The notes under the pieces were generated by a model. That model saw only the letters and a list, made by a program, of their open reading frames with translations, was not told where the DNA came from and did no database searches. From Rhizophagus irregularis (lineage: Eukaryota): a DNA stretch of 64,000 nucleotides. Location of the stretch: positions 5,704,001 to 5,768,000 of the forward strand of contig NC_089429.1 in assembly GCF_026210795.1 (NCBI RefSeq), in the 5' to 3' direction. Every line of letters starts with the position of its first letter. Position 1 is the first letter of the stretch. Below are positions 16,858 through 63,248 of this stretch, piece by piece. The position numbers and the translations under genes are program-made.

Positions 16858-18273
16858 ATAAAATTGCCAAAATATACTAATGCTATTACAATTGAAGTTG
16901 TTAATGACCCTTGCGTAAAATTTTTCGACTAATATGGTCATTTTAAATTATCGTTCTCCTTATTTGCGAAGAATTTTATTAAAAATAATGGAATTTTGGC
17001 ACACAAAAAATTACCAAATATTTTACCTGAATTTTTCAAATAATCTTAAAGTGAGAGAATTGAAGTAAAAAATTTGTGATTTTTTTTTTCTTTTTTTTTT
17101 AAAAAAAAAGAGAATCTTTTTATTTTACGGAATATTCATTTTAGATAATATCTATGAAGGAAGACTTCCTTTAGAGGAGCATGATACTTTAGATATTATT
17201 GAACTTTGGTGAACTTAATCTTCAAGAATTAATCATTGATTCACAATCATTTTTAATTGAGAACAAAATTTTATCGTGATATATTAAAATTTCCAAAATA
17301 CCAGAAAAATTTTTAATTCAACGATTTTAATTCAATTCTAACAGAAAAATGTCTGATCTCACTTATTCAACAATTCAACATGACAACGAATGATATTCAA
17401 GTTTGGGAACATGCACTTTAATGGGATATTGTCCAAAATTCCGATCTTCCTTCCTTCAGACCTTCAAAATTATTCAAAAGATGATTTTAGTACTTTAAAA
17501 AAATACTTTGTAACAATTTATTCCTTTCATTAAATTTTATAATTTATGCTTAAATTATGTATGGTTGAAGTTTAATTAATAAATGTATTCTTTTATGCTT
17601 TATTACATATTGTGAATGTTTTGAATGTCTCAAGCGCTTGTCTCATTATATTAATTTTACGACCTTCTCCATATAAAAAAATCATACCTAGTAAGAAATT
17701 ACGTGAAAATTTAATTAAATATTTTTTAAATCCTAGTAAAAATCTAACAAGAATTTTGTGATGATCTCATAATATAACAATTATTAAAGTGAAAGATAGC
17801 AATGAAATTCTTGGGGATATAATCCGATCGTATGGAAGTCTGGTGGCTGATATGGCATCACTGAAGATAGTTTATCATATTCACATTTAAGAACGAAAAT
17901 TATATTTAGTCGAATATCAGTTGTAATAATCAAATCGGTTACGGTCCATCATACTGGTTGCGACCTTAAATTTGTGGAATAGTTTATATTATTATACCGG
18001 ACGTTATAACAAATCAATTAGAGAAACTATCCTGTAAAAAAAGTCATTCAGTTTTTATATTCCATCTTTTTTTATCTTTTTTTCCGTAAAAAGCTCATGT
18101 TTCCGGAATTAATAACCTTATATCACGGAATTTATCGAATTATTTATATTTTCCGTGAATGGACCCGTGAAAAGCTCATTTTTACGGGAGAAATAACGGA
18201 TAAAATTTTTTATAGGGCTAATGGACACTTTTTTGTAGAAGAATATGAAGTATTTCTAATTATGAAAAATTGA
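16857..18273 (+). pseudogene. BTB-BACK-TLDc pseudogene
   Basis: Collinear with 19224-20713 (attgaagttg..aatgaccc, intron, gtttgggaacatg, gaagaatatgaagtattt) but carries many deletions, frameshifts, stops and a MITE insertion. Confidence 0.92.
18030..18217 (+). mobile_element. 188-bp CCC..GGG MITE inserted in the TLDc-coding part of the pseudogene
   Basis: TCCTGTAAAAAA...TTTTTTATAGGG with TSD CTA. The paralogue near 20650 shows the empty site agagaaaCTAatgg. Confidence 0.93.
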
Positions 18274-19223: not shown

Positions 19224-20713
19224 ATGTGCGATAATAAATTTTTGCCAAAATTATCACAAAATTTACTAGAAATTTTAGAAGATAATGAATTTTATGATAT
19301 AACTATTGAAGTTGGTAATGACCCTTACGTAAAAATTTTTCGAGCTCATATGGTCATTTTAAATTATCGTTCTCCTTATTTGCGAAGAATTTTATCAACA
19401 AGCGTTAATAAAAATAAAAATGATGGAAGTTTGACACATATTAAATTACCAAATATTTCACCGGAAATTTTTCAAATGATCTTAAGGTGAGTAAAAACTT
19501 AGCGTTTTTTTTAAAAAAAAAAGAGTAATTTAAACTTTACGGAAATATTCAAATTTTTTTTTTCCGTTTTAGATATATTTATGGAGGAAGTCTTTCTTTA
19601 GAGGAATATACTAATACTTCGGACATAATTAAAATTTTGGTCGCTTCCAGTGAACTTAGTCTTCAAGAATTAATCACTCATCTAGAATTATTTTTGATAG
19701 AAAAAAAAAAAAATTGGATGGAACAAAATTTTAACTTGATATATAAAATAAGTTTTGAGAATGGCTCTTTCTTGGAATTGCAAAATTTTTGTAGAGAATT
19801 AATATCTAAAGAACCAGAAAAAATTTTTAATTCAAAAGATTTCAATTCAATTTCAGAAAAATGTCTGATTTCACTTATTCAACACGATAATATTCAAATG
19901 AATTATATCAAAGTTTGGGAACATGTACTTAAATGGGGTATTGCTCAAAATCCTGAACTTCCTTTAGATCCTTCTAGTTATTCAAAAGATAATTTTATTA
20001 CCTTAAAAAATACTTCACAACGTCTTATTTCTTCTGTCAATTTTTATAATTTAAATTCTGAAGAATTTTTGAATAATGTATATCCATATAAAAAAATTAT
20101 ACCTAAAGAATTACGTGAAAATTTAGTTAAATATTTTTTGAATCCTAATAACCAATCAATTAATTCAAAAAGTATAGACTCAAGAATAATTACGATACAG
20201 CATACCGAATTAATATCGAAATGGATTGATAGATTAGAAATCACTGACAAGATGAAAAGTTCATATGAATTCAATTTGATTCTTCGTGGATCTCGTGATG
20301 GGTTTTCGCCTAATAAATTCCATGAGATTTGTGATAATCAATCTCATACTATAACAATTATTAAAGTGAAAGATAGCAACGAAATCCTTGGAGGATATAA
20401 TCCAATCATATGGAAATCTGATGGTGGTTTTGATACCACTAAAGATAGTTTTATATTCTCTTTTAAGAATAAGGAAAATATTAAAAATTGTATTTTAAGT
20501 CGAATATCAGCATATCTTGAAGATTGTGCTATATTCAATAACATGGATTACGGTCCATCATTCGGTGCTGGTTGCGACCTTAAATTGTATGGAGACAATT
20601 GTTATGATCAGAGTGAATATCGTCATACTAGATGTTATAACAAACCAATTAGAGAAACTAATGGTCATTTTTCTGTTGAAGAATATGAAGTATTTCAAAT
20701 TACGAAAAATTGA
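19224..20713 (+). CDS. BTB/POZ-BACK-TLDc protein A, exons 19224-19486 and 19573-20713, ~467 aa
   Basis: BTB (DITIEVG..FRAHMVIL..RSPYL; phase-2 intron in ILR|YIYGG), BACK (VWEHVLKWG) and TLDc (LILRGSRDGF..FHEICD, GGYNP, SFIFSF, GPSFG, VEEYEVF). The splice restores the frame. Confidence 0.93.
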
Positions 20714-22618: not shown

Positions 22619-24110
22619 ATGTATGATAAAAAATTTTTACCAAAATTATCTAAAAATTTACTAGAAACTTTAGAAGATAATGAATTTTATGATACAACTA
22701 TTGAAGTTGGTAATGACCCTTACGTAAAAATTTTTCGAGCTCATATGGTTATTTTAAATTATCGTTCTTCTTATTTGCGAAGAATTTTATCAACTAGAGC
22801 TAATAAAAATAAAAATGATGGAAGTTTGACGCATATTAAATTACCAAATATTTCACCGGAAATTTTTCAAATGATCTTAAGGTGAAAAATTTCAGTTAAC
22901 GATTTTTCTTGTTTTCTTTTTTTTTTTAAAAAAAAATATTTAATTATTTTCATTTAGATATATATATGGAGGAAGACTTTCTTTAGAGGAATATGATACT
23001 ACGGATATAATTAAAATTTTGGTCGCTTCAAGCGAACTCGATTTTCAAGAATTAATCATTCATTTACAATCATTTTTAATTGAAAACAAAGAAAGTTGGA
23101 TGGAACAAAATTGTAGTTTGATATATAAGACAAGTTTTGAGAATGATTCTTTCTCAAAATTACAACATTTTTGTAGAGAATTAATATCTAAAGAACCAGA
23201 AAAAATTTTTAATTCAAACGATTTCAATTCAATTTCAGAAGAATGTCTGATTTCACTTATTCAACACGATAATATTCAAATGGATGTTATTCAAATTTGG
23301 GAACATATACTTAAATGGGGCATTGCTCAAAATCCGGAACTTCCTTCAGATCCTTCTAATTATTCAAAAGATGATTTTATTACCTTAAAAAATACTTTAC
23401 AACGTCTTATTTCTTCTATCAAATTTAATAATTTAAATTCTGAAGAGTTTTTGGATAATGTATATCCATATAAAAAATTAATACCCAAGGAGTTACGTGA
23501 AGATTTGATTAAACATTTTTTGAATCCTAAAAACCAATCAATTGAAAATTTGAATAATTCAAAAAGTATTGACTCAAGAATAATTACGATACAGCATACC
23601 GAATTAATATCGAAATGGATTGATAGATTAGAAATTACTGACGAGATGAAAAGTTCATATGAATTCAATTTGATTCTTCGTGGATCTCATGATGGGTTTT
23701 CGCCTAATAAATTTCATGAGATTTGTGATAATCAATCTCATACCATAACAATTATTAAAGTGAAAGATAGCAACGAAATCCTTGGAGGATATAATCCAAT
23801 CATATGGAAATCTGATAGTGGATTTGGTTCCACTAAAGATAGTTTTATATTCTCTTTTAAGAATAAGGAAAATATTAAAAATTGTATTTTAAGTCGAATA
23901 TCAGAAGATCTTGAAGATTGTGCTATATTTAATTGCATGAATTACGGTCCATCATTCGGTGCTGGTTGCGATCTTAAATTGTGTGGAGACAATTGTTATG
24001 ATAAGAGTGCATATTATCATACTAGATGTTATAACAAACCAATTAGAGAATCTAATTGTCAATTTTTTGTTGAAGAATATGAAGTATTTCAAATTATGAA
24101 AATTGATTGA
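22619..24110 (+). CDS. BTB/POZ-BACK-TLDc protein B, exons 22619-22881 and 22958-24110, ~471 aa
   Basis: Same motifs and intron position as gene A; in-frame splice. Confidence 0.92.
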
Positions 24111-31145: not shown

Positions 31146-31282
31146 AAAAGGCTCATATTTCCAGAATTAATAACCTTATATTACAGAATCTATCAAATTA
31201 TTTACATTTTCCGTGAATGGATCCATGAAAGGCTCATTTTTACAGAGTTTTTACAGAAATAATGAATAAAATTTTTTATAGG
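31146..31282 (+). mobile_element. Truncated, CpG-decayed copy of the ~180-bp MITE
   Basis: Aligns to 12602-12779 and 18030-18217 and ends ...ttttttatagg; most CG sites are changed to TG or CA. Confidence 0.85.
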
Positions 31283-32116: not shown

Positions 32117-34215
32117 CACAGGTCAAATAAATAAAAATCAGATTTTTGCCCTTTTTAATATGGCTGTCTGATTTTTTGGCAATTTTAATATAATATTTCC
32201 GATTTTAATAAATATTTCTAATTTTAATATAATATTTCTGATTTTTAACATGAAATTGCCGATTTTGGTTATTTGTAATAGGATTTTTCAATTTTAATAT
32301 AAAATTTCTGATTTTAATATATAACATGTGATTATGTATTACGGTTTAATATTTATTTATTAACTTAGATTTTTTTTTTATTTCAGTTATAATTATTTTT
32401 TTGCCTCAAAAACTTTACTAAAATACTTTTTAAATACTTTATAAAATAGAATTAAAATATTTTTTTTCTTAAATATAAATACATTTAAATTAAGTAACTC
32501 ATAATTTAAAATATAAACAAATATTATATTTTTTTTACATATATTTCAAAGTATGGTTTGAGCATTTCGGCTGAAGTAAATCTTATTCTTTTAATTAAAA
32601 GTAGTTTAGTAAGTTTAAAACTGTTAAGAACATAAAAGTATAGTTAATATTTTTGGAATTATTTACATTTTTTATATAATACAGTAGTATTAAGTTACAA
32701 ATTTTTTTACTTTCAGAGCGTATTTTGAGATCTTTAGCCAAAGTAAATCAACTTCTTATATTAATTGTAAGTTGTTCAGCAAGTTAAAATCTACTTGGAT
32801 ATTAATTTTCACGAAGGTACGAAGGTACAGTTAATACTTGATGAGTTATTCACAATTTTCACAACAGTACTCATTCACGAATTTTATTTTTTTCATTTTG
32901 TCACTTCAGAGCGTATTATAAGCACTTTATCCAAAGTAAACCAACTTCTTATATTAATTGAAAGTTGTTTAGCATGTCAAAATCTACTTGAATATTAATT
33001 TTCACAAAGGTACAGTTAATTCTTGATGAGTTACTTACGATTTTCACAATGGTACTCATTTACGAATTTTATTTTTTTCCGTTTTGTCACTTCAGAGCGT
33101 ATTTTGAGCACTTTAGTCAAAGTAAATCGACTTCTTTTATTAATTGAATGTTGTTTAGCATGTCAAAATCTACTTGAATATTAATTTTCACGATGGTACA
33201 GTTAATACTTAATGAATTATTCACGATTTTCACAATGGTACTCATTTACGAATTTTATTTTTTTCCGTTTTGTCACATCAGAGCGTATTTTGAGCACTTT
33301 AGTCAAAGCAAATCGACTTCTTTTATTAATTGAAAGTTGTTCAGCAGGTCACAATCTACTTGGATATTAATTTTCACGAAGGTACAGTTAATACTTGATG
33401 AGTTATTCACGATTTTCACAATGGTACTCATTTACGAATTTTATTTTTTTCCGTTTTGTCACATCAGAGCGTATTTTGAGCACTTTAGTCAAATTAAATC
33501 GACTTCTTTTATTAATTGAAAGTTGTTCAGCAGGTCGCAATCTACTTGGATATTAATTTTTATGAAGGTACAGTTATTACTTGATGAGTTATTCACGATT
33601 TTCACAACGGTACTCATTTACGAATTTTATTTTTTCTATTTTGTTACTTCAGAGCGTATTTTGAGCACTTTAGCCAAAGTAAATTGACTTCTTTTATTAA
33701 TTAAAAATTGTTCAGCAGCTTAGAATCTACTTGAATATTTATTTTAATGAAGACACAGTTAATATTTGTGGAGTTATTAATTTTTTATAATTGTGCGTAT
33801 TACATTGAATTACAAGTAAATTTATATTCTTAATGTATTTTGTTTAAAATTTAATTATTTAAGATTAGTTTTTTATTTAATATTGCTTAATAAAATATTT
33901 TTTAAAATTTAATTCAATATTACAATATAATTTTTTATAAAAATATATATTTCATAATATATATACAATTTTTTTGTATAGTGAAAAAACTGAAAAATGT
34001 GGTTAAGAATTAATAATACGGCTGTAAAAAGTCACAAATCGGACAAATATAGCTAAAATCAGCAGTCTGATTTGAATATGCAATTTAAAAATTGGCATAT
34101 CCAATTTTTGTCAATTCATGCTAAAAAATCGGCTACAAAATGCTACAAATCAGACAAATATAGCCAAAAATTGGCTATCTGATTTTTTTGCCAATTTTTA
34201 TTTATTTGATGTGTG
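32117..34215. mobile_element. 2.1-kb non-autonomous element with CAC..GTG termini nested in the 5.5-kb element
   Basis: TIR CACA(GG/CA)TCAAATAAATAAAAAT with 3-bp TSD ATA; subterminal (T/C)GATTTT / AAAATC(A/G)G repeats. Confidence 0.85.
32545..33790. repeat. Tandem array of ~186-bp units (~6.5 copies)
   Basis: The TCAGAGCGTATT anchor recurs at 32713, 32906, 33092, 33278, 33464 and 33649. Confidence 0.95.
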
Positions 34216-34409: not shown

Positions 34410-36080
34410 TAAATTATAATTTAAAAATTAAGCAATATCAAGGAAAATTCTCATGAATTTTTCTTAATACTACTTAATTCTAATTTAACTAATTTAGTAT
34501 TAAGGTTTTATTAATTTAAAAATTAAGCAGTATCAAGGAAAATTCTTGCGAATTTTTCTTAATACTGCTTAATTCTAATTTAACTAATTTAGTATTAAGG
34601 CTTTAATTTAAAAATTAAGCATTATCAAGGAAAATTCTTGCGAATTTTTCTTAATACTGCTTAATTCTAATTTAACTAATTTAGTAGTATTAAGGCTTTA
34701 ATTTAAAAATTAAGCAGTATCAAGGAAAATTCTTGCTAATACTGCTTATATCTTCCAATTCGTGAAATTAGCCAAACATAAAGATTTGCAAGAATTATGT
34801 TTCACAAGCTTAAATTGTATGTGTTACATAATCAGATGATCTAAATCTATCAAAAAATAAAAAAAAAATTTTTATCGTTTATTCAAAAATAACAATGGCA
34901 ACTACTTTCTTTTTCAATCACTTTTCAATCACTTTTCAATCAGATTTTTGTTAGGTGACTTAGAAAAGTTTATAGGCATATATAGCAGGTTTTTTTTAAT
35001 CAGTAAGTAAGAAAACAAATATTAATAATTTTTATTAATAAGAAAAATCTTTTTTCATTTATTTTTAACCTTAGTTCCTTCATTTTTTTTAGTAAAAATA
35101 TATACAAAATAAAAATGTGAGTTATGATTTAGAGTTTTTGAGATGTTTTTTTTATTTTTTACTATACTAATTTTATTCTACTTGTTAATTACTTTTTAAA
35201 ATTGATTTTATTAATTTATTCAATTTAAAACAGAAATGGCAAATAAAAACTTGTTAAGTAAAGTAAAAAGAGCCCAATAATACCTGTAAAGATCATCTTT
35301 TGGTAAGAATTATAATTTTAAAAATTTTTGTGTCAGAGTTTTATTCAATTAACAAAATCGTTAATATCTTGGCGTACATGTATGCTAAACACATATATTT
35401 ATATTCATATGAAAGCCCAGAATCTACTCTACCTGAACGAAAAAAGATTATTCAAATTGAATTACTAGATGTAAAGATATTAACGATCAAAGTCAAAGGT
35501 TAAAAATAAATATATTGAACGTAATTATTTGGCAACTTGTGATCCAATATAGCTCTTGATTACCTCTTTCTGATGAATATAAATTCATTCGTCTAGCACA
35601 CATACACGTTAAGTTATTCAATATTTTGTCATGACAATTATATTTAAATTTTTTAATTTTAATGATATTATTAAAAAAAATCAAAAAATAATATAATCAA
35701 ATCAATTTTATTTATATCAGTGGTGTGAATCTATCATTTTCATGTAACTTGTATTTGCATTTTCTTAATAAAGTTAGTTTTTTGAATATGAAAACTTAAT
35801 TCCATAAATCAGCCCATATGTTAATTCTAATTTAACTAATTTAGTAGTATTAAGACTTTAATTTAAAAATTAAGCAGTATCAAGGAAAATTCTTGCGAAT
35901 TTTTCTTAATACTGCTTAATTCTAATTTAACTAATTTAATATTAAGGCTTTAATTTAAAAATTAAGCAGTATCAAAGAAAATTCTCACAAATTTTTCTTA
36001 ATTCTAATTTAGCTAATTTAGTATTAAGGCTTTAATTTAAAAATTAAGCAGTATTAAGAAAAATTTTTACAAATTTTCTT
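34410..36080. repeat. Two blocks (34410-34750, 35820-36080) of 92-95-bp tandem units, each containing a 25-bp-arm palindrome
   Basis: AATTAAGCAGTATCAAGGAAAATTC-TTGC-GAATTTTTCTTAATACTGCTTAATT recurs with a constant linker. Confidence 0.9.
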
Positions 36081-39000
36081 ATTAAAAAAAAGAACTTTTA
36101 AATTACTAATTAAACTTTAAAAACAATCTGTATAATTTAAATTTTAAAAAAAATACTTCTGCTTTTTAATTTTCGCATTTCTATATTTAACCAATTAAAA
36201 TTCAGCTGATCGCTGATCACATGCATTAATAACACGTTATTGTTTATTTTTTGTTTATTTTTTCAAAAATATTCTTTTCTCTTCTTTTTTTTAGAAAAAA
36301 AAAGACAATAAAAATGAATACCAAAATTATTTTAACATATAATAATAAAAATTAAATAAAAAACTTATTTTGATAATATATAATATATATTTGTACCAAA
36401 CTACTAATTATACAAAAAGTGATATGCATGTATATCAATTAACAATTACTTTCACTAATATCTCTCAGGAATTGTAATGGTGAATTTTAACAATATTAAT
36501 TAAACAACTATATGTACACCGTTTTATGTTTTTATTTTTATATTAATATTATATGTTAACATATATTAATTATATTTTTTTTTTACTTTTATGTATTTTA
36601 TTTAATTTTTTTTAATATATTACTAACATTATTACTACTATCGTTTTATTACTTTTTTATATCTAACTAATATATTAATAATATTACTAACTTTTTATTA
36701 TTTCTTTTTTATATTTAAAATAATGATAATATTACTAATTAAATTTCTTTTTTTTTGTTTATATTTTGCTAATATTATTTTTTTTACAAATAGTATATTA
36801 TTTTATACTAGTTTTTTATTTATATTATTTATAAAAAATATTTGTATATTTAATATTATTTAATAAAAATTTTATTGATTATAAATGCATTTTAAATTCT
36901 GTTTGCAAATATAAAATATACGATTTAATTGAATAATATATACTATTTATCAGTACAAAATATGCAGTTTAAACTGGAAAAAAGTACTGTTTATCAGTAT
37001 AAAATATACGGTTTATCCTGGAAAAGTATACTGTTCGCAATATAAAATATAAAACAATATACTGTTTATTAGTATAAAACATACAGTTTTTCTACTGTTT
37101 ACAAGTATAAAACATATGGGTGAAACTGGAAAAATATACTGTATGCAAACCGTATATATGATACGGTGTGCAGAATACCGAATATATACAGTATGTGAAA
37201 ATACTGTAATTATACGGTAATAATATTATAAATATACTGTTCGCAAAATACGAAAATACAGTATACTAACCGTATATATATTTTTTATAGGGCATCAATC
37301 TGCAAAACTAAAATCAAATTGCTATGCTCATCCAACTTCTTTTCTCTGCAAATCAACACAACGACTTCTTCATATTCATAGCCTTCAGTACTATTCATCC
37401 AAGTTCTAGCTTGAATTGTAATTGTAATAATTGTGATTGTAAATCCTATCACCACCCTCATTATTCTTTGTTTTGGATCCATGATCATCACCATAATCCT
37501 CTTTTTCATCATCACCACCCTCATTTGGGCTATTCTATTTTCACAGAATTTTGTGAATTATGCAAATATTTTAAATTTCTCCTCTTTAAATTGAGGATGA
37601 TATAGTATTTGAGATTGTTGTCTATCCTTCTCTTCAAAATGTGAATACCCTGGGCAATATTGTGATCAAGGTAGGTGTAGATGACCATGATAATTTATGG
37701 TGTATTTATCTACAGATTCTTCTGACTCCCATTTGCCAAAGTTTAGTACAAAACAGTCCACAAGTAGTTCATCCTTATAAGGATATTGCAATCAAAATGG
37801 TTTAGGAGTAAAGGTAATATCCATGGATTTTCTTCCTAAAGGTAATTCTCCTAAGTCAAACTTGTGAACTCCCCAACTCAATTGAGTAATCTGTTCTAGA
37901 TTTTCTTAGGAGTTACCCATTTTGCAAAATAAAAAATCACCCATCACCTTTCACCAACCTAAGCAAACAAATCCAAGTAATCTCTTAAATAAACTAGGAA
38001 CTCCCTGACTCAATTGAGTAATCCATTCTTGACTTTGCTTAGGCATTACTCATTTTGCAAAATAAAGTTAAACACATCACTTTTAAAGGTCTTGTCAAAT
38101 AAACCATATGGAACTGTAGATCATATGATTGCATTTAGAAGTAATTGCAATTTGTCACAGATTTTTTTTTCAGAATGTGGTTTCCAGATAAGATTGGCTG
38201 TAAATGTTGTAATAACTTGATAAAATTTTATATAGAATATATTTTTCCTAAAGTAACAGAATCTATTTCAGAGAAAAAAGTATTTTTTAAGAAAGAAGTT
38301 TAAAATTTAAAGGAAATTTTTATATTAAATATATCTTTCTCAAAGTATAAGTATTGAGATACTTGAAATTATCATAATTATCATTAGCCATAAATTGTAA
38401 TAATCATTTTTATAAATGTGTAACCTAAGGTTTTGCATACTTTTATAGTTTTCCATAGTATGAATCTTTGATATCAAAATAAGATGTTAAATGTCTTGTA
38501 GATCAGAAAACATGTCAAGAAATTGGCATAATCCAAACCTTTGAAAAAATAAACCTTTTTGATCAGTTTATTGGTCATATAGAAATAATTCTTGATCTCA
38601 GGCAGTGATAGAATTTAAAAGTTTCATAAGCTCTCATGGAGCATGATTTTTAATCTCTGTTACTTTATCTCTAACTGTTATAGTACTTGATAGAATAGTG
38701 TTTATACTCAACAGCTTATCAAAAATAGTAGAGAATAAAGGAGTTATATACTTGTAAAAATCAAGAGAAAATGCAAAAAATGTCATTGTAGAATTGGAAG
38801 GAACTAAAGATGTAATTTATGTTTAAAATATGAAATAGGAGAATAATATGAAAGAAAAAAAATAATATTTGAGAGGAGGTAATGTTTGAAGTAAGAGAAA
38901 AAAAAGAATGTATTAATTATAGATTTTATTAAAATAGAGAGTAGAACAAGTGTATTATTAAGAATATTTGTATTTATATGTAATAAAAAAGCAAAAAGAA

Positions 39001-47103: not shown

Positions 47104-48629
47104 ATGTATGATAATAAATTTTTGCCAAAATTATCACAAAATTTACTTGAAATTTTAGAAGATAATGAATTTTATGATATAACAATTGAAGTTGGTAATG
47201 ATCCTTATGTAAAAATTTTTCGAGCTCATATGATTATTTTAAATTATCGTTCTCCTTATTTACGAAGAATCTTATCAACTAGCGTTAGTAGAAATAATAA
47301 TGATGGAAGTTTAACACATATTAAGTTACCAAATATTTCACCGGAAATTTTTCAAATGATCTTAAGGTGAGAGAATTGAAGTAAAAAATTTAGCGATTTT
47401 TTTTTTTTAAAAAAAAACTAATATTTTAAAATTTACGAAAATATTCAAAATTTTTCATTTAATATTTTCGTTTTAGATATATCTATGGGGGAAGGCTTTC
47501 TTTAGAGGAATATGATACTTCGGATATAATTAAAATTTTGGTCGCTTCCAGTGAACTTAGTCTTCAAGAATTAATCACTCATTTACAATTATTTTTAATC
47601 GAAAATAAAAAAAATTGGATGGAACAAAATTTTAACTTGATATATAAAACAAGTTTTGCGAATGATTCTTTCTTAAAATTACAAGATTTTTGTACAGAAT
47701 TAATATCTAAAGAACCAGAAAAAATTTTTGATTCAATCAACTTTATTTCACTTTCAGAAAAATGTTTGATTTCTCTTATTCAACATGATAATATTCAAAA
47801 GAATGTTATTCAAGTTTGGGAACATGTACTTAAATGGGGTATTGCTAAAAATCCTGGACTTCCTTCAGATCCTTCTAATTATTCAAGAGATGATTTTATT
47901 ACTTTAAAAAATACTTTACAACAATTTATTCCTTTTATTAATTTCTTTAATTTAACTTCTAAAGAATATTTAGATAAAGTATATCCGTACAAGAAAGTTA
48001 TACCAAAAGATTTGCGTGAAAATTTAATCATACATTCTATTGATCAACCGAAAAATAATCCAGAACCAAAAATAATTACCAAAGAGACTAGTTCAAAAAG
48101 TATTGATTCAAAAATCATTACAATCAAACATGCTAAATTGATATCGAAATGGATTGATAGATTAGAAATTACTAACAAGATGAAAAATTCATATGAATTT
48201 AAGTTGATTCTTCGTGGATCTCGTGATGGATTTTCATCTCAAAAATTCCATGAGATTTGTGATTATCAATCTCATACTATAGCAATTATTAAAGTGAAAA
48301 ATAGCAATGAAATCCTTGGTGGATATAATCCGATTGTATGGAAATCTAATGATACATTTGGCGCCACTAAAGATAGTTTTATATTCTCTTTTAAGAATAA
48401 GGAAAATATTGAAAATTATATTTTAAGCCGAGTAAAGAATGAAACATATGCTATAGTAAATAATCTTGGATTAGGTCCATCTTTTGGTGATGGTGACCTT
48501 AAATTACGTGGAAATAATTATAGTTGGAGCGTTTGTCGTTATACCGGATTTTATGACAAATTTATTAGAAAAGTCAGCGGTTTGTTTTCTGTAGAAGAAT
48601 ATGAAATATTTCAAATAATTAAAGATTGA
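47104..48629 (+). CDS. BTB/POZ-BACK-TLDc protein C, exons 47104-47366 and 47477-48629, ~471 aa
   Basis: Same motifs and intron as gene A; in-frame splice. Confidence 0.93.
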
Positions 48630-49138
48630 TTAATATTTCTAATGATTAAAGGCGCCAATGTAAATATTCTGTATGATATATATATATTTTGTTATTTTTT
48701 AATAATTACCATTTAGGAGTAGTAAAATTTGTTTATCGGTTTTCTGTTTAATTAAAATTCTATTGTTCGCGGAATTTAAGAATTTTTCATCCTATAGTTT
48801 ATCAAAATTTTTATATGTAAAAAATTAGTTTGCGTATTTTTGGGCTAATCTTATATATATAATATATTTACTGAACGTTAACCGCATTGTAATATTTAGT
48901 ATTAATTAAAAGAAATTTCTAAGGATTAAAAAGTGAAATTTTGGAAAAATATTATTGGTTTTATAAATAATATAAGAAGTCATGATAAAATAATTTAAAC
49001 TTAATGCCTGCGTACTACCCATATAAAAAAGTCTCTGCGTACAGCTCATAGTAAAAAAATTTTTCGCCACCTGACCCTTATACTGTATATATATATTTCT
49101 GGGTCCTCCATGCATTGCTTCATAAATTCGACCGGAGC

Positions 49139-49894
49139 GGCCATCCTTAACCTGATCCGCCGGTCCAGATGCTTATTCTGGACTAGTCAACTTTTGATTG
49201 GCTAATCAGCACTTTTTATTACATAACTCCGGCATAATTTATTTTATCTTTCACTCTTCCTATCTTTCACTCTTTCTCTATTCTTTTTTGTGGTATGTTA
49301 GTACTTAGTATTTCATATTTCATTTCAGTTTGTATATTTAATTTTAATTGTATTTATTGTAGTTTTATGATAATACTAAATGTTTTTTATTTTCTTTTTG
49401 AAGAGTTTTATGATACAGTATATTGATATTATTCTGGAAATCAAGTTGTTTTTTTTAAAAAAAAAAGCTTTGGGGTTAAGCGAAGTTGTTCAAAAAAGGT
49501 TGTAAATTACACATTTATAACATTACTTATAAAGCTAATATAATATTACTTTGTACTTTTGTTTTGATATTAACGTTAAAATAATTTTAATAATAATATT
49601 ACAGTAAAAAATAATGTAAAGACCTTTTTTATAAAGTTATATATGCAATTTTACTTATTTAGTATTAATAAAGTTTAATAAAATTCATACCAAAATACAA
49701 AATTTAAATGACATATTACTTTAAAACGGTAGTATTAAATGCTTTTAAAAAAAGGCATTTCGTAACTTTTTTTAAAAAAACGCGAATTGTGTTTTTTTTT
49801 TTTTAAAGACAAATGTTACACAAAACAATCTCATCCAATTAGATTTGCTGGTCTAGGATAAGCATCTGGACCGTGGCCCAGGATAAGGATGCTC
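49139..49894. mobile_element. 756-bp non-autonomous Mutator-like element
   Basis: ~48-bp imperfect TIRs (G..CATCCTTA.CCTG...GGTCCAGATGCTTAT) and an exact 9-bp TSD GACCGGAGC (49130-49138, 49895-49903). Confidence 0.85.
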
Positions 49895-50041
49895 GACCGG
49901 AGCAGAATACTCTTAACAATCACGTGATTTAATTTTTGAGTCAGGTGTTTCGGTATTTTTTGGAGCCGAAATTTACCAAATAAATCGATAAATCGTTCAC
50001 AGTTCAACAATATTCTACTTTATTTCTTGAAAGGACTTATA

Positions 50042-51564
50042 ATGTACGATAATAAATTTTTACCAAAATTAACACAAAATTTACTTGAAATTTTAGAAGA
50101 TAATGAATTTTATGATATTACTATTGAAGTTGGAAATGACCCTTACGTAAAAATTTTTCGAGCTCATATGGTCATTTTAAATTATCGTTCCCCTTATTTG
50201 CGAAGAATCTTATCAACTAGCGTTAGTAGAAATAATAATGATGGAAGTTTGACGCATATTAAATTACCAAATATTTCACCAGAAATTTTTCAAATGATCT
50301 TAAGGTGAGAGAATTGAAGTAAAAAATTTAGCGACTTTTTTTTTTTAAAAAAAAAACGAATATTTTAAATTTTACGAAAATGTTCATATTTTTCATTTAA
50401 TATTTTCGTTTTAGATATATCTATGGGGGAAGACTTTCTTTAGAGCAATATGATACTTCGGATATAATTAAAATTTTGGCCGCTTCCAGTGAACTTAGTC
50501 TTCAAGAATTAATCACTCATTTACAATTATTTTTGATCGAAAATAAAAAAAATTGGATGGAACAAAATTTTAACTTGATATATAAAACAAGTTTTGATAA
50601 TGATTCTTTCTTGAAATTACAAGATTTTTGTACAGAATTAATATCTAAAGAACCAGAGAAAATTTTTAATTCAGTCGATTTTATTTCACTTTCAGAAAAA
50701 TGTTTGATTTCTCTTATCCAACATAAAAATATTCAAAAGAATGTTATTCAAGTTTGGGAACATGTGCTTAAATGGGGTATCGCTCAAAATTCTGGACTTT
50801 CTTCAGATCCTTCTAGTTATTCAAAAGATGATTTTATTAATTTAAAAAATAATTTACAACAATTTATTCCTTTTATTAATTTCTTTAATTTAACTTCTAA
50901 AGAATATTTAGATAAAGTATATCCGTACAAAAAAGTCATACCAAAAGATTTGCGTGAAAATTTATTTAAATATTTTATGGATCAGCAAAGTAATAACCCA
51001 GAACCAAAGATAACAACCAAAGAGACCAGTTCAAAAAGTATTGATTCAAAAATCATTACAATCCAACATGCTGAATTAATATCGAAATGGATTGATAGAT
51101 TAGAAATTACTGACAAGATTAAAAATTCATATGAATTTAAATTGATTCTTAGTGGATCTCGTGATGGGGTTTCGCCTAGTAAATTCCATGAGATTTGTGA
51201 TAATCGATCTCATACTATAACAATTATTAAAGTGAAAAATAGCAACGAAATCCTTGGTGGATATAATCCGATAATATGGAAATCTGATCCTAGCTTTGGC
51301 ATTACTAAGGATAGTTTTATATTCTCTTTTAAGGGTAAGGAAAATATTGAAAATTATATTTTAAGCCGAGTAAAATATGAAAATTTTGCTATATACAATG
51401 ACTCTGGATTTGGTCCATGTTTTGGTGATGGTGACCTTAAATTAAGTGGAGAAAATTACGAACTGAGTTGTTCTTATATTGAATGGTATGACAAACCAAT
51501 TAGAGAAACCGAAGGTTATTTTTTTGTAGAAGATTATGAAATATTTCAATTTATTAAAGATTGA
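50042..51564 (+). CDS. BTB/POZ-BACK-TLDc protein D, exons 50042-50304 and 50415-51564, ~470 aa
   Basis: Same motifs and intron; tandem duplicate of gene C. Confidence 0.93.
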
Positions 51565-53292
51565 TTAATATTTCTAATGATTAAAGGTGCCAATGTATAT
51601 ATTCTGTATGATATATATATTTCTTGTTATTTATTATTTTTTAATAGTTACCATTTAGGAGTAATAAAATTTCAGTTGTTTATCGGTTTTCTGTTTAATT
51701 AAAATTCTATTGTTCACGGATTATTCAAAATATATATTATTTATTTATATTATATATATACTTTACATGAGTATAACGAGAATTATTAATTGAAGTATTA
51801 ATATTATTTGTATTGGTTCCATGAAAATTGTATATTTTGTATTTTGACAGTATAATATTTATTATAAATGAAAAATAAAAAAAAAATATTTTGGTGATAA
51901 TTTAAATAATAAATTTCTTTAACTGTATAGTTAGTGATGCAAACATTATGAACCGAAAATTAATTTAATAAATTGAATTATTCTAATGCTCCAAACTTAA
52001 TAAAATTATTTCTTAATATCCCTCGTTATAACCTCGCTCAGTAAAATTAGAATTTCACTATACGGCCACGGAGTACATCACGAAATTTTTAGGGTAGATC
52101 GGTCACGTAATTCCTATTAGTTCCCCACTTATTTTAATCTTCGAAATTTTGTGGATCTACGCCAAAAATACTGTGTTTTGTCACAGAGTATTTGGAAAAT
52201 ATTGGAACTATTCAGATTTCCACATAATTCCACATGAATTTCCATGTGGATTTTACGTGGAAAACATTTCCTGATTAAAGTTACGCCTTTTACATCATCG
52301 CAATCAAAGTTCACATCTTTCCAGTGATTTTCTCTTCCACACAGGAATAACACAATGCACAAAAACGTTGTTTAAATCCTTCGCACATCCTTCTGTGATT
52401 TATAACATTCTCATACATGTCTTCATACTTTGATTACCTTCAAGATCTTTACTGAAACGTACCATCTTCGTTTGTTGAGTACGTTGATCGTGAATTGGCT
52501 TAATATTGTAAGGAAAAGCAATATACCTAAATTTTGATCATCATCCTTCATAAAAAAACGGAGTTTTTCCAATGAGTCCACCCCAAAAAAGTAAAAGAAG
52601 AACGTTAATAAACGTTCTCAAAAAAAAATAATAATAATAATAAAAATAATAAATATTTATTACCGGTACAGTTTCAAGCCGGTTCAAGACTCCAATTCCA
52701 GCTTCCAAGGAGTCCGCTCTAAAGAAAAATAAATAAATAAGCGTTCTCAATTAAAAAAAAAATAAAAAAAAATAAAAAATAAAAAATATTTACCGAATAT
52801 TTTTTTAATAATAGTAAAAAACTTACTATGTAATAAGTGGAAAATTTTAGGTTCTCTTATTAATAATAAATGGACTTGAAAATTTTTTATAATTGTTACT
52901 AATTTCAACATAAATTTCGATTAAAATTTGGCGTCAATTATTAAAAATTATTAGTACTCTCATTCTACGCTACAAGATTATAAGTAAATAAATTTGGTAT
53001 ATGGTTTTACGATAGGGAATAGGAAATAACCACTAGGCAATAACAATAAAGGCTCCAATAAATAAATATCAATAACTCAAAAATTGTATTTTTCGATAGT
53101 AACAATAATTAATGTTAGTAGGACCTTATCCGTCTATCGCTCAATGACCGTGAAGTTCACTAAATCTATTTATTTTTTGCATAATCATATTTTATTTTTT
53201 ATTATAAGACAGAGCCCACCTCCTTCCCCCTGCGTTCCTTTCATCAAAAACTTTCTCCCGTGGATAAAAGATAATAATGTGTATAATAAAAA

Positions 53293-53420
53293 CAAAAATT
53301 TTATCCGTTATTTCTGTAAAAACTCCGCAAAAAATGAACCTTTCACGGGTCCATTCACGGAAAATGTAAATAATTCGATAAATTCTGTGATTAAGGTTAT
53401 GTAGATCGACTTTTTTTATA
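53293..53420 (-). mobile_element. Degenerate reverse copy of the ~180-bp MITE
   Basis: Reverse complement of 12602-12779 (ttttatccgttatttctgtaaaaactccg...gatcgactttttt). Confidence 0.8.
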
Positions 53421-53545: not shown

Positions 53546-53731
53546 ATGTATGATAATAAATTTTTACCAAAATTATCACAAAATTTGCTTGAAGTCTTAG
53601 AAGATAATGAATTTTATGATATTACTATTGAAGTTGGAAATGACCCTTACGTGAGAATTGGTCGAGCTCATATGGTCATTTTAAATTATCGTTCCCCTTA
53701 TTTGCGAAGAGTTTTGTCGACTAACGTTTAA
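53546..53731 (+). pseudogene. Truncated BTB gene (first 61 codons only)
   Basis: Matches exon 1 of the paralogues up to RRVLSTNV, then unrelated sequence. The upstream region resembles that of gene D. Confidence 0.9.
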
Positions 53732-55080: not shown

Positions 55081-56567
55081 TCAATTTTTCATAATTTGAA
55101 ATATTTCATACTCTTCTACAGAAAAACGATTTTTGGTATCTCTAATTGGTTTTTCGTAATCAAAATTACAGCAACTACTCTCATCATAACAATTGTCTCC
55201 ATACAATTTGAGGTCACCGACACCAAATGAAGGACCAGAGTAAGCACTATTATCTATAGCATATTTTTTATTTTTTACTCGACTTAAAATATATCCATTA
55301 ATATTTTCCTTATTCTTAAAAGAAAATATAAAACTATCTTTAGTAACGCTATCACTATAATCAGATTTCCATATGATCGGATTATATCCTCCAAGAATTT
55401 CATTACTATCTTTTACTTTAATAATTGAAATTGTATGAAATTTATTATCACAAATCTCATGAAATTTACTAGGTGAGAATCCATCACGAGATCCACGAAG
55501 TATTAAATTGAATTCATATGGATTTTTTATCTCTTCCGTAATATCTAATTTATCAATCCATTTAGAGATTAATTCAGCATGTTGAATTGTGATTATTTCT
55601 GAATCAATACCTTTTGATCCAACTTCTTTAGTCATCATTGGTTCTGGATTATCACTTGACTGATTTACAAAATGCTTAATTAAATTTTCACGTAAGTCTT
55701 TTGGTAAAATCTTTTTATACGGATATACTTTTTCTAAAAATTCATTATGATTCAAATCGAAGAATTCAATAAAAGGAATACATTGTTGTAAAGTACCTCT
55801 TAAAGTAATAAAATCTTCTTTCGAATAACTCGAAGGATCTGAAGGAAGTCCAGGATTTTGAGCAATACCCCATTTAAGTACATGTTCCCAAACTTGAATA
55901 ACATCCATTTGAAAATTATCATGTTGAATAAGAGATATCAAACATTTTTCTGAAAGTGAAATAAAATCGATTGAATTAAAAATTTTTTCCGGTTCTTTAG
56001 ATATTAATTCTGTACAAAAATTTTGTAATTTCAAGAAAGAATCATTCTCAAAACTTGTTTTATATATAAAGTTAAAATTTTGTTCCATCCAATCTTTTTT
56101 GTATTCAATTAAAAATGATTGTAAATTAATAATTAATTCTTGAAGACTAAGTTCACTAGAAGCAATTAATATCTTAATAATATCTGAAGTATCATATTCC
56201 TCCAAAGAAAGTCTTCCTCCATAAATATATCTAAAATGAAATTTTCGAATATTTCCGTAAGTATCAATAAAAAAAGTCGTCATAATTTATTTCAATTCTC
56301 TTACCTCAATATCATTTGAAAAGTTTCAGGCAAAATATTTGGTAATTTAATATGTGTCAAGACTCCATCATTTTTATTTTTATTAATGTTAGTTGATAAT
56401 ATTCTTCGCAAATAAGGAGAACGATAATTTAAAATCACCATATGAGCACGAAAAATTTTTACGTAAGGGTCATTACCAACTTCGATAGTAATATCATAAA
56501 ATTCATTATCTTCTAAAATTTCAAGAAAATTTTGAGATAATATTGGTAAAAATTTATCATCATACAT
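55081..56567 (-). CDS. BTB/POZ-BACK-TLDc protein E, exons 56567-56305 and 56230-55081, ~470 aa
   Basis: Same motifs and intron position; in-frame splice. Confidence 0.93.
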
Positions 56568-57623: not shown

Positions 57624-57980
57624 ATGAATAATAATAAATTTTACGAAAATTATCTCAGAATTTACTTAAGATAATGAATATTATGAAGTTTAATGACCCT
57701 TACGTAAAAATTTTTCATGCTCATAGATAGTATGCCCTGTAAAAAATCTGATCCGTGTTTTTTCTTTCCATGTTTTTCCGTGAATGTATCATTTTCATGA
57801 AATTTATAGCCTTAAATCATGGAAATTTTCATCTCGCACGGATATCCGTGAATGCGGAATTTTTACGGAAGACACGGAGAAATAATGGAAATATTCGGAT
57901 AAAAATTTTTATAGGGATGGTGTTAACGTTAATAAAATAAAAATGATGGAACTTTGTTATATATTAAATTACCAAATATT
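57624..57980 (+). pseudogene. Decayed BTB exon-1 fragment interrupted by a MITE
   Basis: aatgacccttacgtaaaaatttttcatgctcata and attaaattaccaaatatt match BTB exon 1; deletions and frameshifts. Confidence 0.85.
57735..57916 (+). mobile_element. 182-bp CCC..GGG MITE (divergent subfamily)
   Basis: CCCTGTAAAAAA...TTTTTATAGGG with TSD ATG. Confidence 0.88.
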
Positions 57981-58699
57981 CAACCACTTAATATTTTTAG
58001 TATATTTACGAGGACTTTTCCTTTTTTTAAAAGAAATAGTCTTTTAAAAGAACAAAAAAAAAGCAAGAGAATCTTCTCACTATAAGAAGAGTACACATTT
58101 CTTGGATCATTAGTTTAAACTACAGTAACTTGAATATCTCAGGAATTATTTAGTATTAAAATTTTATAACGCGACATCCATCGAAGAAATCAATACAATA
58201 GATAATATATTTTCATTATATATACTCGTAATTAAATCCAGTTAAATTTCCTGTGGGCTGTGGGAAAGTATAATATGTTTCAAATCATAAAATTGTTTAA
58301 ATAATGTATATATATTGATTTATATTTTCTGGCATACGAATGGTGTGAAGGTGGATATTTAGCACTTAACGTTAAACCTGTAAAGCTTTGGAAAGTATTT
58401 AATCCCTTTTTTGTACTGCGAAAGAAATGAAAGTTTTACGATTTAAAGTTACTTTTTTAATCGGACATTACATAAAAAAAATGCGGAAGAAATTATAATT
58501 AATAAGTTACACTTCAGTTAACAATTTCATAAGGTTAAACCAGCCTAATTTTCTTATTTTTATGATCAAATATAATACGTTAGTCTCGTGTATAAAGTGT
58601 ACAATATAAATTAATGGTAATTATTAAAACTAATAAAACGTCATCTTTATTGTTTCATAACATATTTTTTTCAGTAATAAAAAATACATAGTTGCTTTA

Positions 58700-60188
58700 T
58701 CAGTCTTTCATAATTTGAAATACTTCATACTCTTCTACAGAAAAATCCTTGTCTGTATTTCTAATTGGTTTGTCATAATGAATACGAAAGCAATAACTTT
58801 CATTAAAACAATTGTTTCCACACAATGTAAGATCACCTTCACCAAATAAAGGACCATAATCAGCGCAATTATTTATAGCATAATATTTATTTATTACTCT
58901 ACTTAAAGTATAATTATCAATATTTTCCTTATTAAAAGAGAATATAAAACTATCTTTAGTAACGCTAACACTATAATCAGATTTCCATATATTCGGATTA
59001 TATCCTCCAAGAATTTCATTACTATCTCTCACTTTAATAATTGAAATTGTATGAGATTTATTATCACAGATTTCATGGAATTTACTAGACGAAAATCCAT
59101 CACGAGATCCACGAAGAATCAACTTAAATTCATATGAATTTTTCATATTATCAGTAATTTCTAATTTATCAATCCATTTAGAGATTAATTCAGCATGTTG
59201 AATTGTAATGATTTTTGATTCAATACTTTTTGATCTAACTTCTTTAGTTATCTTTGGCTTCATTGGCTGATTTATAAAATGTATGATTAAATTTTCACGT
59301 AATTCTTTTGATAAAACCTTCTTATAAGGATAAACGTTGACCAAAAATTCTTTATTGTTTAAATTGAAGAATTTAATAAAAGGAATACATTGTTGTAAAG
59401 TACTCCTTAAAGTAATAAAATCACCTTTTGAGTAGTTTGAAGGATCTGAAGGAAATCCAGGATTTTGAGCAATACCCCATTTAAGTAAATGCTTCCAAAC
59501 TTGAATAACGTTCGTCTGAACGTTATCATGTTGAATAAAAGAAATTAAACATTTTTCTGAAAGTGACGTAAAATCGATGGAATTAAAAATTTTTTCTGGT
59601 TCTTTAGACATAAGTTCTATACAGAAATTTTGTAATTCTAAAAAAGATCCATTCTTAAAATTTGTCTGATATATTAAGTTAAAATTTCGTTCCATCCAAT
59701 TTTTCCTATTTTTAATCAAAAATAATTGTAAATGAATGACTAATTCTTGAAGACCAAGTTCATTGGAAGCGATTAAAATCTTAATAATATCTGAAGTATC
59801 ATATTCCTCTAAAGAAAGTCTCCCTCCATAAATATATCTAAAAATGATAAATATTCGAATATTTACATAGTAAGTATCAATAAAAAAAAAAAAGTCGTCA
59901 TAATTTATTATTTCAATTCTCTTACCTCAAAATCATTTGAAAAGTTTCAGGTAAAATATTTGGTAATTTAATATGTGCCAAGACCCCATCATTTTGATTT
60001 TTATTAATGTTAGTTGATAAAATTCTTCGCAAATAAGGGGAACGATAACATAAAATCACCATATGAGCACGAAAAATTTTTACGTAAGGATCATTACCAA
60101 CTTCAATTGTAATATCATAATATTCATTATCTCCTAAAATTTCAAGTAAATTTTGTGATAATTTTGGTAAAAATTTATTATCATACAT
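58700..60188 (-). CDS. BTB/POZ-BACK-TLDc protein F, exons 60188-59926 and 59837-58700, ~466 aa
   Basis: Same motifs and intron position; in-frame splice. Confidence 0.93.
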
Positions 60189-61738: not shown

Positions 61739-63248
61739 ATGTATGATAATGAATTTTTACCAAGATTATCTCAAGATTTACTTGAAATTTTAGAAAACAA
61801 TGAACTTTTTGATATTACTATTGAAGTTGGTAATGACTCGAAAACTTTTCATGCTCATATGATCATATTGATCTGCCGTTCCCCTTATTTGCGAAGACTT
61901 ATATCAACTAACGTTAACGTTAATAAAAATAAAAATGAACGTATTAAATTACCAAATATTTTACCTGAAACTTTTCAAATGATATTGAGGTAAGAGAATA
62001 GAAATAATAATTATGACGACTTTTTTTTATTGATACTTACGGAATTATTCGAATATTTTCATTTTTAGATATATTTATGGAGGAAGACTTTCTTTAGAGG
62101 AATATGATACTTCGAATATTATTAAACTTTTAATTGCTTCCAATGAACTTAATCTACAAGAATTAATCACTCATTTACAATTATTTTTGATCAAAAACAA
62201 AAAAGACTGGATGGTACAAAATTTTAGCTTGATATATAATACAAGCTTTGAGAAGGATTCTTTCTTGGAACTACAAAATTTTTGTAAAGAATTTATGTTT
62301 AAAGAACCAAAAAAAATTTTTGATTCAAGAGATTTTACTTCGCTTCCAGAAAATTGTTTGATTACTCTTATTCAACATGAAAATTTTCAAAATAATGTTA
62401 TTCAAGTTTGGGAACATGTACTTGAATGGGGTATTGCTAAAAATCCTGAACTTCCTTCAGATCCTTCTAATTATTCAAAAGATGATTTTAAGAACTTAAA
62501 GAATACTTTACAACAATCAATTCCCTTTATTAAATTCAATAATTTGAGTCATCAAGAATTTTTGGATAAAGTATATCCATATAAAAAAATTTTACCAAAA
62601 GATTTACGTGATGAATTAATTAGGCATTTTATAAACCAGTCAACTAATAGGCCAGAACCAAAGACTACCAAAGAAAATGATTCAAAAAATATTGATTCAA
62701 AAATCATTACAAAACAGCATGCTGAATTAATCTCTAAATGGATTGATAAATTAGATATTAAGGACGAGATAGAAAATCCTTATGAATTCGAATTAATACT
62801 TCGTGGATCTCGGGATGGATTCTCCCCTAAGAAATTCCATGAGATCTGTGATAATAAATCTCATACTATATCGATCATTAAAGTGAAAGGTAGCAATGAA
62901 ATCCTTGGAGGTTATAATTCGATCATATGGAAATCTGATGATAAGTGGGGTACTACTAAAGATAGTTTTATATTCTCTTTTAAGAATAAGAATAGTATTA
63001 AAAATTATACTTTAAGTCGAGTAAAATCTGAGGTGTGTGCTATAGATAATGACCCTGCACACGGTCCATCATTTGGTTCTAGTGACCTTGAACTGTATGA
63101 AAACAATCGTGGAGGTGCGTTCGGTCCAGTACATTATGAAACATCGATTAGAAGCACCAATGGTGAATTTTCCGTAGAAGAATATGAAATATTTCAAATT
63201 ACGAAAGAATGTGAGCCTGAAGAGGAATCAAATTGTAATATATCTTAA
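61739..63248 (+). CDS. BTB/POZ-BACK-TLDc protein G, exons 61739-61989 and 62069-63248, ~476 aa
   Basis: Same motifs with small in-frame indels in BTB and an acidic C-terminal extension. Confidence 0.92.

Follow-up and report, generated by a model that had tools for sequence, protein, structure and literature searches.

The closest described systems are the MATH-BTB and F-box genes of nematodes and plants, which form large, clustered birth-and-death families and show positive selection only in the putative substrate domain at the C-terminus (Thomas 2006, through passages of PMC4334554 that summarise it). Those passages report no such selection in the Cullin-side domain and propose surveillance of foreign proteins as the function. 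In the BTB-BACK-Kelch adaptors KBTBD2, KLHL11 and gigaxonin, the α3-β4 loop clamps Cul3 according to passages of PMC3597819. The TLDc proteins OXR1, NCOA7, mEAK-7 and TBC1D24 are V-ATPase binders (passages of PMC8608904 and PMC9263379). Finally, expansions of TLD and BTB/POZ genes in Glomeromycotina, with TLD copy numbers of up to 400, genes arranged in tandem and gene sets that are specific to strains, are described in passages of PMC10079182, PMC8647823 and PMC3886924, where the TLD expansion is linked to protection from reactive oxygen or called signalling-related.

The Rhizophagus family studied here, that of the neighbouring genes C and D, belongs to this already published expansion, and the passages on it contain neither the hypervariability of the loops, nor the selection, nor the adaptor role considered below. 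TLDc loop diversification in Rhizophagus was not found in the literature searched, though subscription papers on these genomes and supplements may contain tables of domain architecture or selection, and a search on TLDc/BTB expansion and Cullin gave no TLDc paper among the matches listed. Like the MATH-BTB and F-box families, the Rhizophagus family shows clustered births and deaths and selection in the C-terminal but not in the Cullin-side domain; it differs from them in carrying TLDc rather than MATH, in the presence of BACK, in its fungal host and in a moderate signal that falls on few sites. It has the TLDc fold and conserved core residues in common with OXR1, NCOA7, mEAK-7 and TBC1D24, but whereas those proteins are few and conserved, the Rhizophagus copies are numerous, are fused to BTB-BACK and have hypervariable loops.

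The gene array and its proteins

The stretch of DNA analysed (the window, 64 kb) carries seven intact BTB-BACK-TLDc genes, A to G, and three broken copies (Table 1). The C and D proteins are identical, letter for letter, to the public entries P0122 and P0121 respectively, and the family as a whole accounts for 2029 hits among 4812 candidates. Another assembly has a different gene set with different loop types at this locus, and the loop type of D is also found in R. diaphanus. An Rfam scan of the window returned zero matches. Among the run contigs over the locus no listed joint cleanly skips the intron, and run X16 covers intergenic DNA too, so that they do not demonstrate expression.

Table 1. 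Positions in the window of the family members and of the features of C and D.
Feature	Position	Strand	Details
Decayed family copy	16880..17900	+	stops and frame changes; tblastn
Paralog A	19224..20713	+	467 aa
Paralog B	22619..24110	+	471 aa
Gene C	47104..48629	+	471 aa; exon 1 47104-47366, intron 47367-47476, exon 2 47477-48629
TLDc domain of C	48099..48626	+	
Variable patches in C TLDc	near 48348-48365, 48438-48473, 48489-48551, 48561-48584	+	
Gene D	50042..51564	+	470 aa; exon 1 50042-50304, intron 50305-50414, exon 2 50415-51564
TLDc domain of D	51037..51561	+	residues 296-470
Variable patches in D TLDc	near 51286-51303, 51376-51411, 51427-51486, 51496-51519	+	
Truncated family copy	53546..53728	+	first 61 residues only; 90% identity to D
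Paralog E	55081..56567	-	470 aa
Short exon-1 remnants of a family copy	57641..58013	+	
Paralog F	58700..60188	-	466 aa
Paralog G	61739..63248	+	476 aa

The proteins carry a BTB domain (Pfam PF00651, E 2e-10 to 3e-10). The continuous BTB, 3-box and BACK region gives a profile match to KBTBD2 42-201 (E 2e-7), and the part after the BTB is helical in the structural model of D, although Pfam BACK is weak and found in A and B only; the BTB-BACK fold of this model matches KLHL11 (3i3n; TM 0.71 to target, rmsd 3.5). The modelled TLDc domain of D (pLDDT 90.5) matches NCOA7 (7obp) with a Z of 20.3 and an rmsd of 2.2 over 156 aligned residues, and OXR1/NCOA7/mEAK-7/TBC1D24-type proteins were matched at Z 17-20. 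The Kelch β-propeller of KLHL and BTB-Kelch proteins is absent, the C-terminal domain being TLDc, although the database label reads 'Kelch-like protein 17'.

The continuous BTB, 3-box and BACK are thus common to these proteins and the BTB-BACK-Kelch adaptors, which differ from them in the propeller and in the α3-β4 loop. A hydrophobic-x-Glu in this loop is a motif of BTB-BACK Cullin-3 adaptors, and KBTBD2 has L-S-E there. The Rhizophagus family is without it: the loop is longer and basic or Asn-rich, with a Glu in few of 48 members. By analogy with the nematode MATH-BTB genes, the balance tips slightly towards the proteins being Cullin-3 adaptors, and we refer to them as predicted adaptors.

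Divergence between genes C and D

The initial annotation had noted that C and D differ far more at the end of the protein than anywhere around it, and the recount agrees closely. Among the final 95 residues there are 29 replacements over 94 aligned positions and one gap (about 30 of 96 had been given), against 2 of 87 in exon 1. The introns, aligned over 109 bases, have 5 mismatches and 2 further columns with gaps, and the first 55 nt past the stop have 2 changes. All five quoted codon changes (GTA>TAC, AGT TGG>GAA CTG, TTT>TGG, TTT>CCA, GTC AGC>ACC GAA) are present, and codons with two or three base changes are indeed in excess (19 of 94; permuting positions gives an expectation of 10.0, p=5e-5). 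Same-base change pairs are more numerous within codons (11, 10 and 8, the last being non-adjacent) than across codon boundaries (4). The framework in between is as quiet as had been claimed, 61 of the 65 C-terminal codons for the same residue being identical at silent sites as well.

What failed was the use of intron and UTR as neutral flanks. They have diverged about three-fold less than silent coding sites (11/237 against ~36/245, p=2e-4) and therefore understate neutral divergence, so that they were dropped as a clock. Exon 1 is not conserved at silent sites: 13 of 82 same-residue codons differ, which equals the non-sister rate (0.152), and its 2 residue changes thus reflect purifying selection rather than recent duplication. 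Silent divergence in BACK is far lower (9/166, P=0.009), indicating a gene of mixed ages.

A silent divergence as high as the replacement divergence in the TLDc segment had been proposed as the sign of one old recombined block. Taken naively the comparison is ambiguous, since dN (0.242) hardly differs from dS (0.211) when the last segment is treated as a whole. Just 4 of the 10.7 silent changes counted lie in same-residue codons, and dS is so high mostly because of pathway-averaged changes within multi-hit codons. Resolved by site class, the equality disappears. We defined 30 variable sites from 107 of 120 database hits, having dropped 13 close to the window genes, and the C-D changes are located at these family-wide variable sites: replacement there reaches 38.5/66.8 (0.58), against 10.5/113 (0.09) for silent change in the framework (P=2e-12). 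The excess of replacement over silent change between C and D therefore survives with silent sites as the baseline. In the model of D, 18 of the 30 sites are in coil and 12 in helix or strand.

Other copies show related patterns. The excess at variable sites is also seen between A and B (0.13 against 0.045, P=0.04), and it is weak between E and F (0.30 against 0.18, P=0.06). In the younger pair A-B the changes are mostly of single bases at the same sites, suggesting that the multi-base codons of C-D are likely stacked hits. Three further copies on one contig (P0001, P0003 and P0004) differ at 0-4 of 87 and 5-9 of 184 residues in the front parts, but their C-terminal segments differ at 28/94 to 33/91.

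Evidence on possible conversion and selection, and competing explanations

Patch conversion, also suggested by the initial annotation, stood at the protein level and not at silent sites. In a quartet of C, D and two close paralogs (P0002 and P0007) the partners switch in blocks, giving a mosaic (runs p=4e-4) in which the sister relationship of C and D breaks down over residues 412-454; three other quartets and a PHI test of the close set were not significant (p 0.06, 0.09, 0.29 and 1). Among the seven window genes no silent-site recombination was detected (PHI-like p 0.48-0.74, congruent trees), MaxChi gave p=0.20 and AU tests rejected just one tree in one segment. All-site PHI gave p=0.0015 for these genes and was set aside, since clustered homoplasy at variable sites could yield it. 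The suggested search for donors, which covered the window and 21 loci, found none of 12 variable patches repeated in the window.

These results bear on the idea that residues ~408-462 are one old recombined block on a younger framework. The similar segment-wide dN and dS, the non-sister relationship in the quartet and a silent divergence (3/32) not clearly below the non-sister 0.22 (P=0.059) are what such a block would give. However, C and D stay sisters among the window genes in the C-terminal segment (78% bootstrap), further variable patches are located beyond the limits of the block (343 and 375-384), and its framework codons are of about the same age as the TLDc next to them: the share of C and D in tree length is 0.17 at non-variable codons of 408-462 and 0.15 over 296-407, against 0.37 at variable sites. 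We regard a single old block as very unlikely.

The diversifying selection proposed at the outset found support in codon models. For the seven window genes M2a was preferred to M1a in TLDc (p=5e-4; 0.003 without the indel loop) and not in BTB-BACK (p=1). When multi-base mutation was allowed, the TLDc signal of these seven genes alone was lost (p=0.11 and 0.23). Nine independent metagenome loci (of 21, 12 being dropped as partial, broken or distant in TLDc) gave p=3e-8, or 0.011 with multiple hits, and recovered sites 417, 438 and 456. With all 16 sequences and multiple hits allowed p was 3e-5, a result robust to F61 frequencies and to removal of indel loops, and the strictest test, M8 against M8a, gave p=0.012; in null simulations 0 of 20 exceeded a 2dL of 4.5, against ~21 observed. 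Sites with omega above 1 make up only 4-6%, those best supported in D being 415, 417, 426, 438 and 456. Omega at the sites that vary across the family was 5.2 on the branches of C and D, or 3.5 with multi-base mutation (p<=2e-4 against 1), in a test picked post hoc whose omega conversion may inflate.

Part of this evidence can be read as relaxed constraint combined with patch conversion, whereby the loops would be free to vary, tracts would be copied from older paralogs or the framework homogenised, and multi-base mutation would add to the differences. The 30 variable sites taken as one class are about neutral (omega 1.1-1.7 with single hits, 0.66-1.2 with multiple hits), multi-hit models fit far better than single-hit ones (p=2e-5), silent divergence can rise less far at a GC3 of 0.146, and the mosaic quartet and the mixed ages of the gene would follow. 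Yet selection remains significant with multiple hits in both the metagenome set and all 16 sequences, at the same sites, and the multi-hit rate comes out at zero over the first half of TLDc. Relaxation, under which the proteins would not have to act in recognition, is on this evidence an unlikely account. Selection, with or without conversion, is probably what lies behind the divergence of the C and D loops.

The initial annotation had further allowed for a targeted diversification mechanism, and the results went against it. If living mycelium altered its TLDc segment by templated mutagenesis or by switching cassettes, this would account for clustered multi-base codon changes and for several loop types on near-identical frameworks, but likely alleles differ at few C-terminal residues (A 0/94, F 0/92, E 1/93, G 2/91, B 3/94 and D 4/94), and the P0007 loop type recurs with 1/94 and 0/94 differences in two other assemblies. 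Positions 51345-51582 of D lie on one contig with zero differences in four of four runs and C has zero differences from 48407 on in the two runs with that piece listed, bearing in mind that run contigs drop rare variants and that the four runs may be of one isolate; passages of PMC3886924 give nuclei of one isolate as >99.97% identical. Changes involving A (33/57 in the C-terminal segment, 53/78 elsewhere) show no adenine excess, and transitions at CpG number 18/82, a count for which no null was computed. The trait of diversity-generating retroelements, adenine-specific change from a template repeat, was not found in the window, which holds no template copy, nor was a linked reverse transcriptase found in the 17 translated stretches scanned, of 46 ORFs listed. 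Such a mechanism is extremely improbable here.

The variable face of TLDc could also be its V-ATPase-binding face, the family then serving as regulators, decoys or guards of the V-ATPase, or as protection from oxidative stress by dosage. Equivalents of the Ncoa7 binding residues are kept in the family (G815 and G845 in 127/127, E938 in 125/127, G896 in 105/127 and S817 in 78/127), and 4 of 6 mEAK-7 contact patches fall within ranges that overlap the variable loops, a rough placement by end-point offsets and not at residue level; in the profile search, mEAK-7 was not among the matches. However, most of these conserved Ncoa7 residues are structural according to passages of the Ncoa7 paper, loops facing one conserved target in the host would not become saturated with change (23 of 31 loop positions differ between C and D), and protection by dosage would predict conservation rather than diversification. 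We find this explanation improbable.

A putative recognition repertoire

Divergence of the TLDc loops by diversifying selection and patch conversion, in the setting of a predicted Cullin-3 adaptor, is the best reading of C and D, and one we hold to be rather likely as a whole. After duplication, the docking half (BTB-BACK) would be held by purifying selection and the TLDc loops would gain successive point replacements, selection favouring new binding surfaces, with short conversion patches likely reshuffling loops among close copies. A loop type, once formed, would persist, as the D type in R. diaphanus suggests, and copies would be gained and lost. The BTB-BACK half would putatively bind Cullin-3 and TLDc a substrate, so that each paralog would mark different, possibly foreign, proteins for degradation; that the targets are foreign is a tentative suggestion.

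A constant docking half, loops that diversify and persist, and gene sets that vary between assemblies fit a recognition repertoire better than dosage. C and D form a near-isogenic pair, with the five best-supported sites named in D. It is possible, though we put it forward speculatively, that the TLDc fold serves as a hypervariable binding scaffold on a putative Cullin-3 adaptor, and that the family, with hundreds of genes, is an intracellular repertoire for immune or non-self surveillance in arbuscular mycorrhizal fungi. Equally speculative candidates for its targets are endobacteria, viruses, transposon proteins or foreign nuclei, met by isolate-specific loop sets that micro-conversion may reshuffle. 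If true, this would suggest a form of surveillance inside the cells of a long-lived, coenocytic fungus, and the TLDc fold would have been put to a new use.

Architecture of the BTB-TLDc genes

The window consists of AT-rich eukaryotic DNA with a GC content of 22–30%. It holds seven intact genes, named A to G, each of two exons and encoding a protein of 466–476 aa that begins with a BTB domain and ends in a TLDc domain; three further family copies are broken. All seven gene models are identical to public R. irregularis proteins. The predicted structure of D runs from BTB through helical BACK and a disordered linker to TLDc; its front part matches KBTBD2 and KLHL11 and its rear part NCOA7, OXR and mEAK-7 (Z 17–20). 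Using D exon 2 as query we obtained 2029 matches among 4812 candidates, and the named sources among the best 120 of these were Rhizophagus irregularis, R. clarus, R. diaphanus and Glomus cerebriforme. In one R. irregularis protein (P0009) a C-type TLDc precedes another TLDc whose loop type differs, which suggests either unequal crossover or fusion in the gene model. Among four distant TLDc relatives (L016–L019, ~30% identity), three are interrupted by in-frame stops when read with the standard code, which may point to another genetic code or to introns.

Diverged copies of the MITE-like element were matched at its position in all four runs; the element ends ~170 nt upstream of the D start and may have replaced its promoter region. 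The two complete P450 copies differ in residue at 98/551 codons and silently at 43/434, which looks like weak constraint. Sel1-repeat genes are another expanded family in these fungi.

Features of the window with their positions
Feature	Position	Description
Gene C	47104–48629	two-exon BTB-TLDc gene
Gene D	50042–51564	two-exon BTB-TLDc gene
MITE-like element	49161–49873	between C and D; 26-nt inverted arms 49161–49186 and 49848–49873, 88% complementary
Tandem cytochrome P450 copies	1–994, 3105–5018, 13664–15530 (minus strand)	
Sel1-repeat ORF	28408–29742	between paralogs B and C
Tandem arrays	32701–33784 and 34417–36084	units about 190 and about 95 nt; self-blast
Dispersed short repeat, about 100–190 nt	about 8110–8241, 12600–12780, 16710–16852, 18030–18218, 31145–31282, 53294–53400	both orientations; at least six places

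Divergence between C and D

The initial annotation held that the coding loops of the sister genes C and D have diverged more than the adjacent intron and 3' UTR. This contrast is real: the two genes differ at 2/87 exon 1 residues, 5/109 aligned intron positions and 2/55 UTR positions, but at 29/94 C-terminal residues, where there is also one gap. Every codon change quoted in that annotation is present. In this last segment 19/94 codons carry multi-base changes, where 10 were expected (p = 5e-5). The younger A–B pair has such changes in only 2 variable codons, suggesting that multi-base codons arise by successive hits.

In an alignment of 127 sequences, entropy exceeds 2.5 bits in 28 of the final 94 columns compared to 0/271 in BTB-BACK, and the C–D differences sit on high-entropy columns (mean 2.73 vs 1.21 bits). 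The TLDc variable sites are a property of the whole family. When these sites were redefined from 107/120 matches, each <78% identical to every window gene, C and D showed 0.58 replacement changes per variable site compared to 0.09 silent changes in the TLDc framework (P = 2e-12); the values were 0.13 vs 0.045 for A–B (P = 0.04) and 0.30 vs 0.18 for E–F (P = 0.06). At variable sites C and D differ as much as the most distant pairs (23/31).

The low divergence of intron and UTR was upheld, but not their fitness as a neutral yardstick, since at 11/237 they lie threefold below silent coding sites (about 36/245; p = 2e-4). Silent differences in exon 1 (13/82) reach the level of non-sister pairs, with 9/166 in BACK. 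Taken with the low non-coding values, this indicates either that parts of the gene differ in apparent age or that its non-coding DNA is under unusual constraint. Both introns (47367–47476 and 50305–50414) and the first 140 nt past both stops are closer than silent coding sites, which may reflect conversion tracts or regulatory constraint.

Tests of selection, conversion and loop stability

Of the three mechanisms proposed for this pattern, diversifying selection is supported by codon tests using our own implementation of GY94 site models. Comparing M2a to M1a for the seven window genes gave p = 5e-4 in TLDc and no positive selection in BTB-BACK (p = 1); when double and triple hits were allowed, the TLDc value became p = 0.11. 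From 21 metagenome loci, the nine whose TLDc is complete and intact entered the tests. Alone they gave p = 3e-8 (p = 0.011 with multi-hit) and independently recovered sites 417, 438 and 456 (D numbering). All 16 sequences together gave p = 3e-5 with multi-hit, a signal that holds under F61 frequencies and without indel-prone loops. The observed statistic was not approached in any of 20 null simulations; M8 against M8a with multi-hit was weaker (p = 0.012). Treated as one class, the 30 variable sites have an omega near 1 (0.66–1.67 across data sets and models), which counts against selection, while the C and D branches, picked after the fact, have an omega of 5.2, or 3.5 with multi-hit, vs 1.0–1.2 elsewhere. 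The family therefore shows selection at a few sites, with many others free to vary, and C and D show in addition either a further burst of change or a mosaic ancestry.

Silent sites of the seven window genes carry no recombination signal, and their segment trees agree. A signal is present among closer relatives, in the quartet of C, D, P0002 and P0007. The last two lie in tandem on the large contig that also encodes the public proteins matching C and D exactly. In this quartet the partner of C is D at residues 19–158, P0007 at 176–305 and 412–454, and P0002 at 375–384 (runs p = 4e-4); three other quartets tested were not significant. This mosaic, seen in protein sequence, points to patch conversion as proposed. 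No donors of 12 variable patches were found in the window or the metagenome loci searched. A single old recombined block at residues 408–462 seems less likely: its non-variable codons are about as young as the remaining TLDc, yet its silent differences (3/32) fall below the rate of non-sister pairs with no more than borderline significance (P = 0.059).

The third mechanism, a targeted mutator, is not supported. The same cluster occurs on a 131-kb contig of another assembly, and its genes are, from order and identity, likely alleles of A–G members that are nearly the same in the last segment (A 0/94, B 3/94, D 4/94, E 1/93, F 0/92, G 2/91). On this contig two more genes, P0003 and P0004, combine the D framework with different types of loop, and the matches listed include no C type encoded by it. 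The R. diaphanus protein P0012 retains D-type loops (12/94 differences vs 11/126 in BACK). In 4/4 runs, from four studies, D 51345–51582 was a single contig with zero differences, and the C variable segment had zero differences in both listed pieces, although contigs lose rare variants and the runs may represent one isolate. No adenine bias of changes was found. Thus loop types, once formed, are stable, and the repertoire differs through gene content.

A predicted adaptor role for the family

The domain order resembles a Cullin-3 adaptor in which TLDc would take the substrate position. The 3-box/BACK is present, as in Cul3 adaptors. KBTBD2 carries a Glu in the alpha3-beta4 loop, the element that clamps Cul3 in KLHL11 (PMC3597819), but the family lacks this residue; we therefore consider the family likely CRL3-adaptor-like, with predicted Cul3 binding, rather than classing it as a CRL3 adaptor. 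It keeps TLDc core residues matching those needed for V-ATPase binding by Ncoa7 (PMC8608904). Of the six contact patches described for mEAK-7 (PMC9263379), four lie near variable loops by rough end-point mapping, so the ancestral binding face of TLDc may be reused, which we offer as a lead only.

In Glomeromycotina, TLD domains have been reported to expand to up to 400 copies, ascribed to protection from reactive oxygen (PMC10079182), and BTB and Kelch-like genes are described as high-copy, strain-variable families (PMC8647823; PMC3886924). A term search of the main text of a 2026 TLDc review did not return BTB (PMC13570293), and the open-access main texts searched gave no account of TLDc loops diversifying in this group of fungi. 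Nematode MATH-BTB and F-box genes are described with the same evolutionary pattern (PMC4334554, citing Thomas 2006). That the TLDc family forms a surveillance repertoire is a tentative reading that we think rather unlikely. The feature itself is real: this important symbiont has a diversifying family of predicted adaptor type in which the variable domain, TLDc, is an unusual one.
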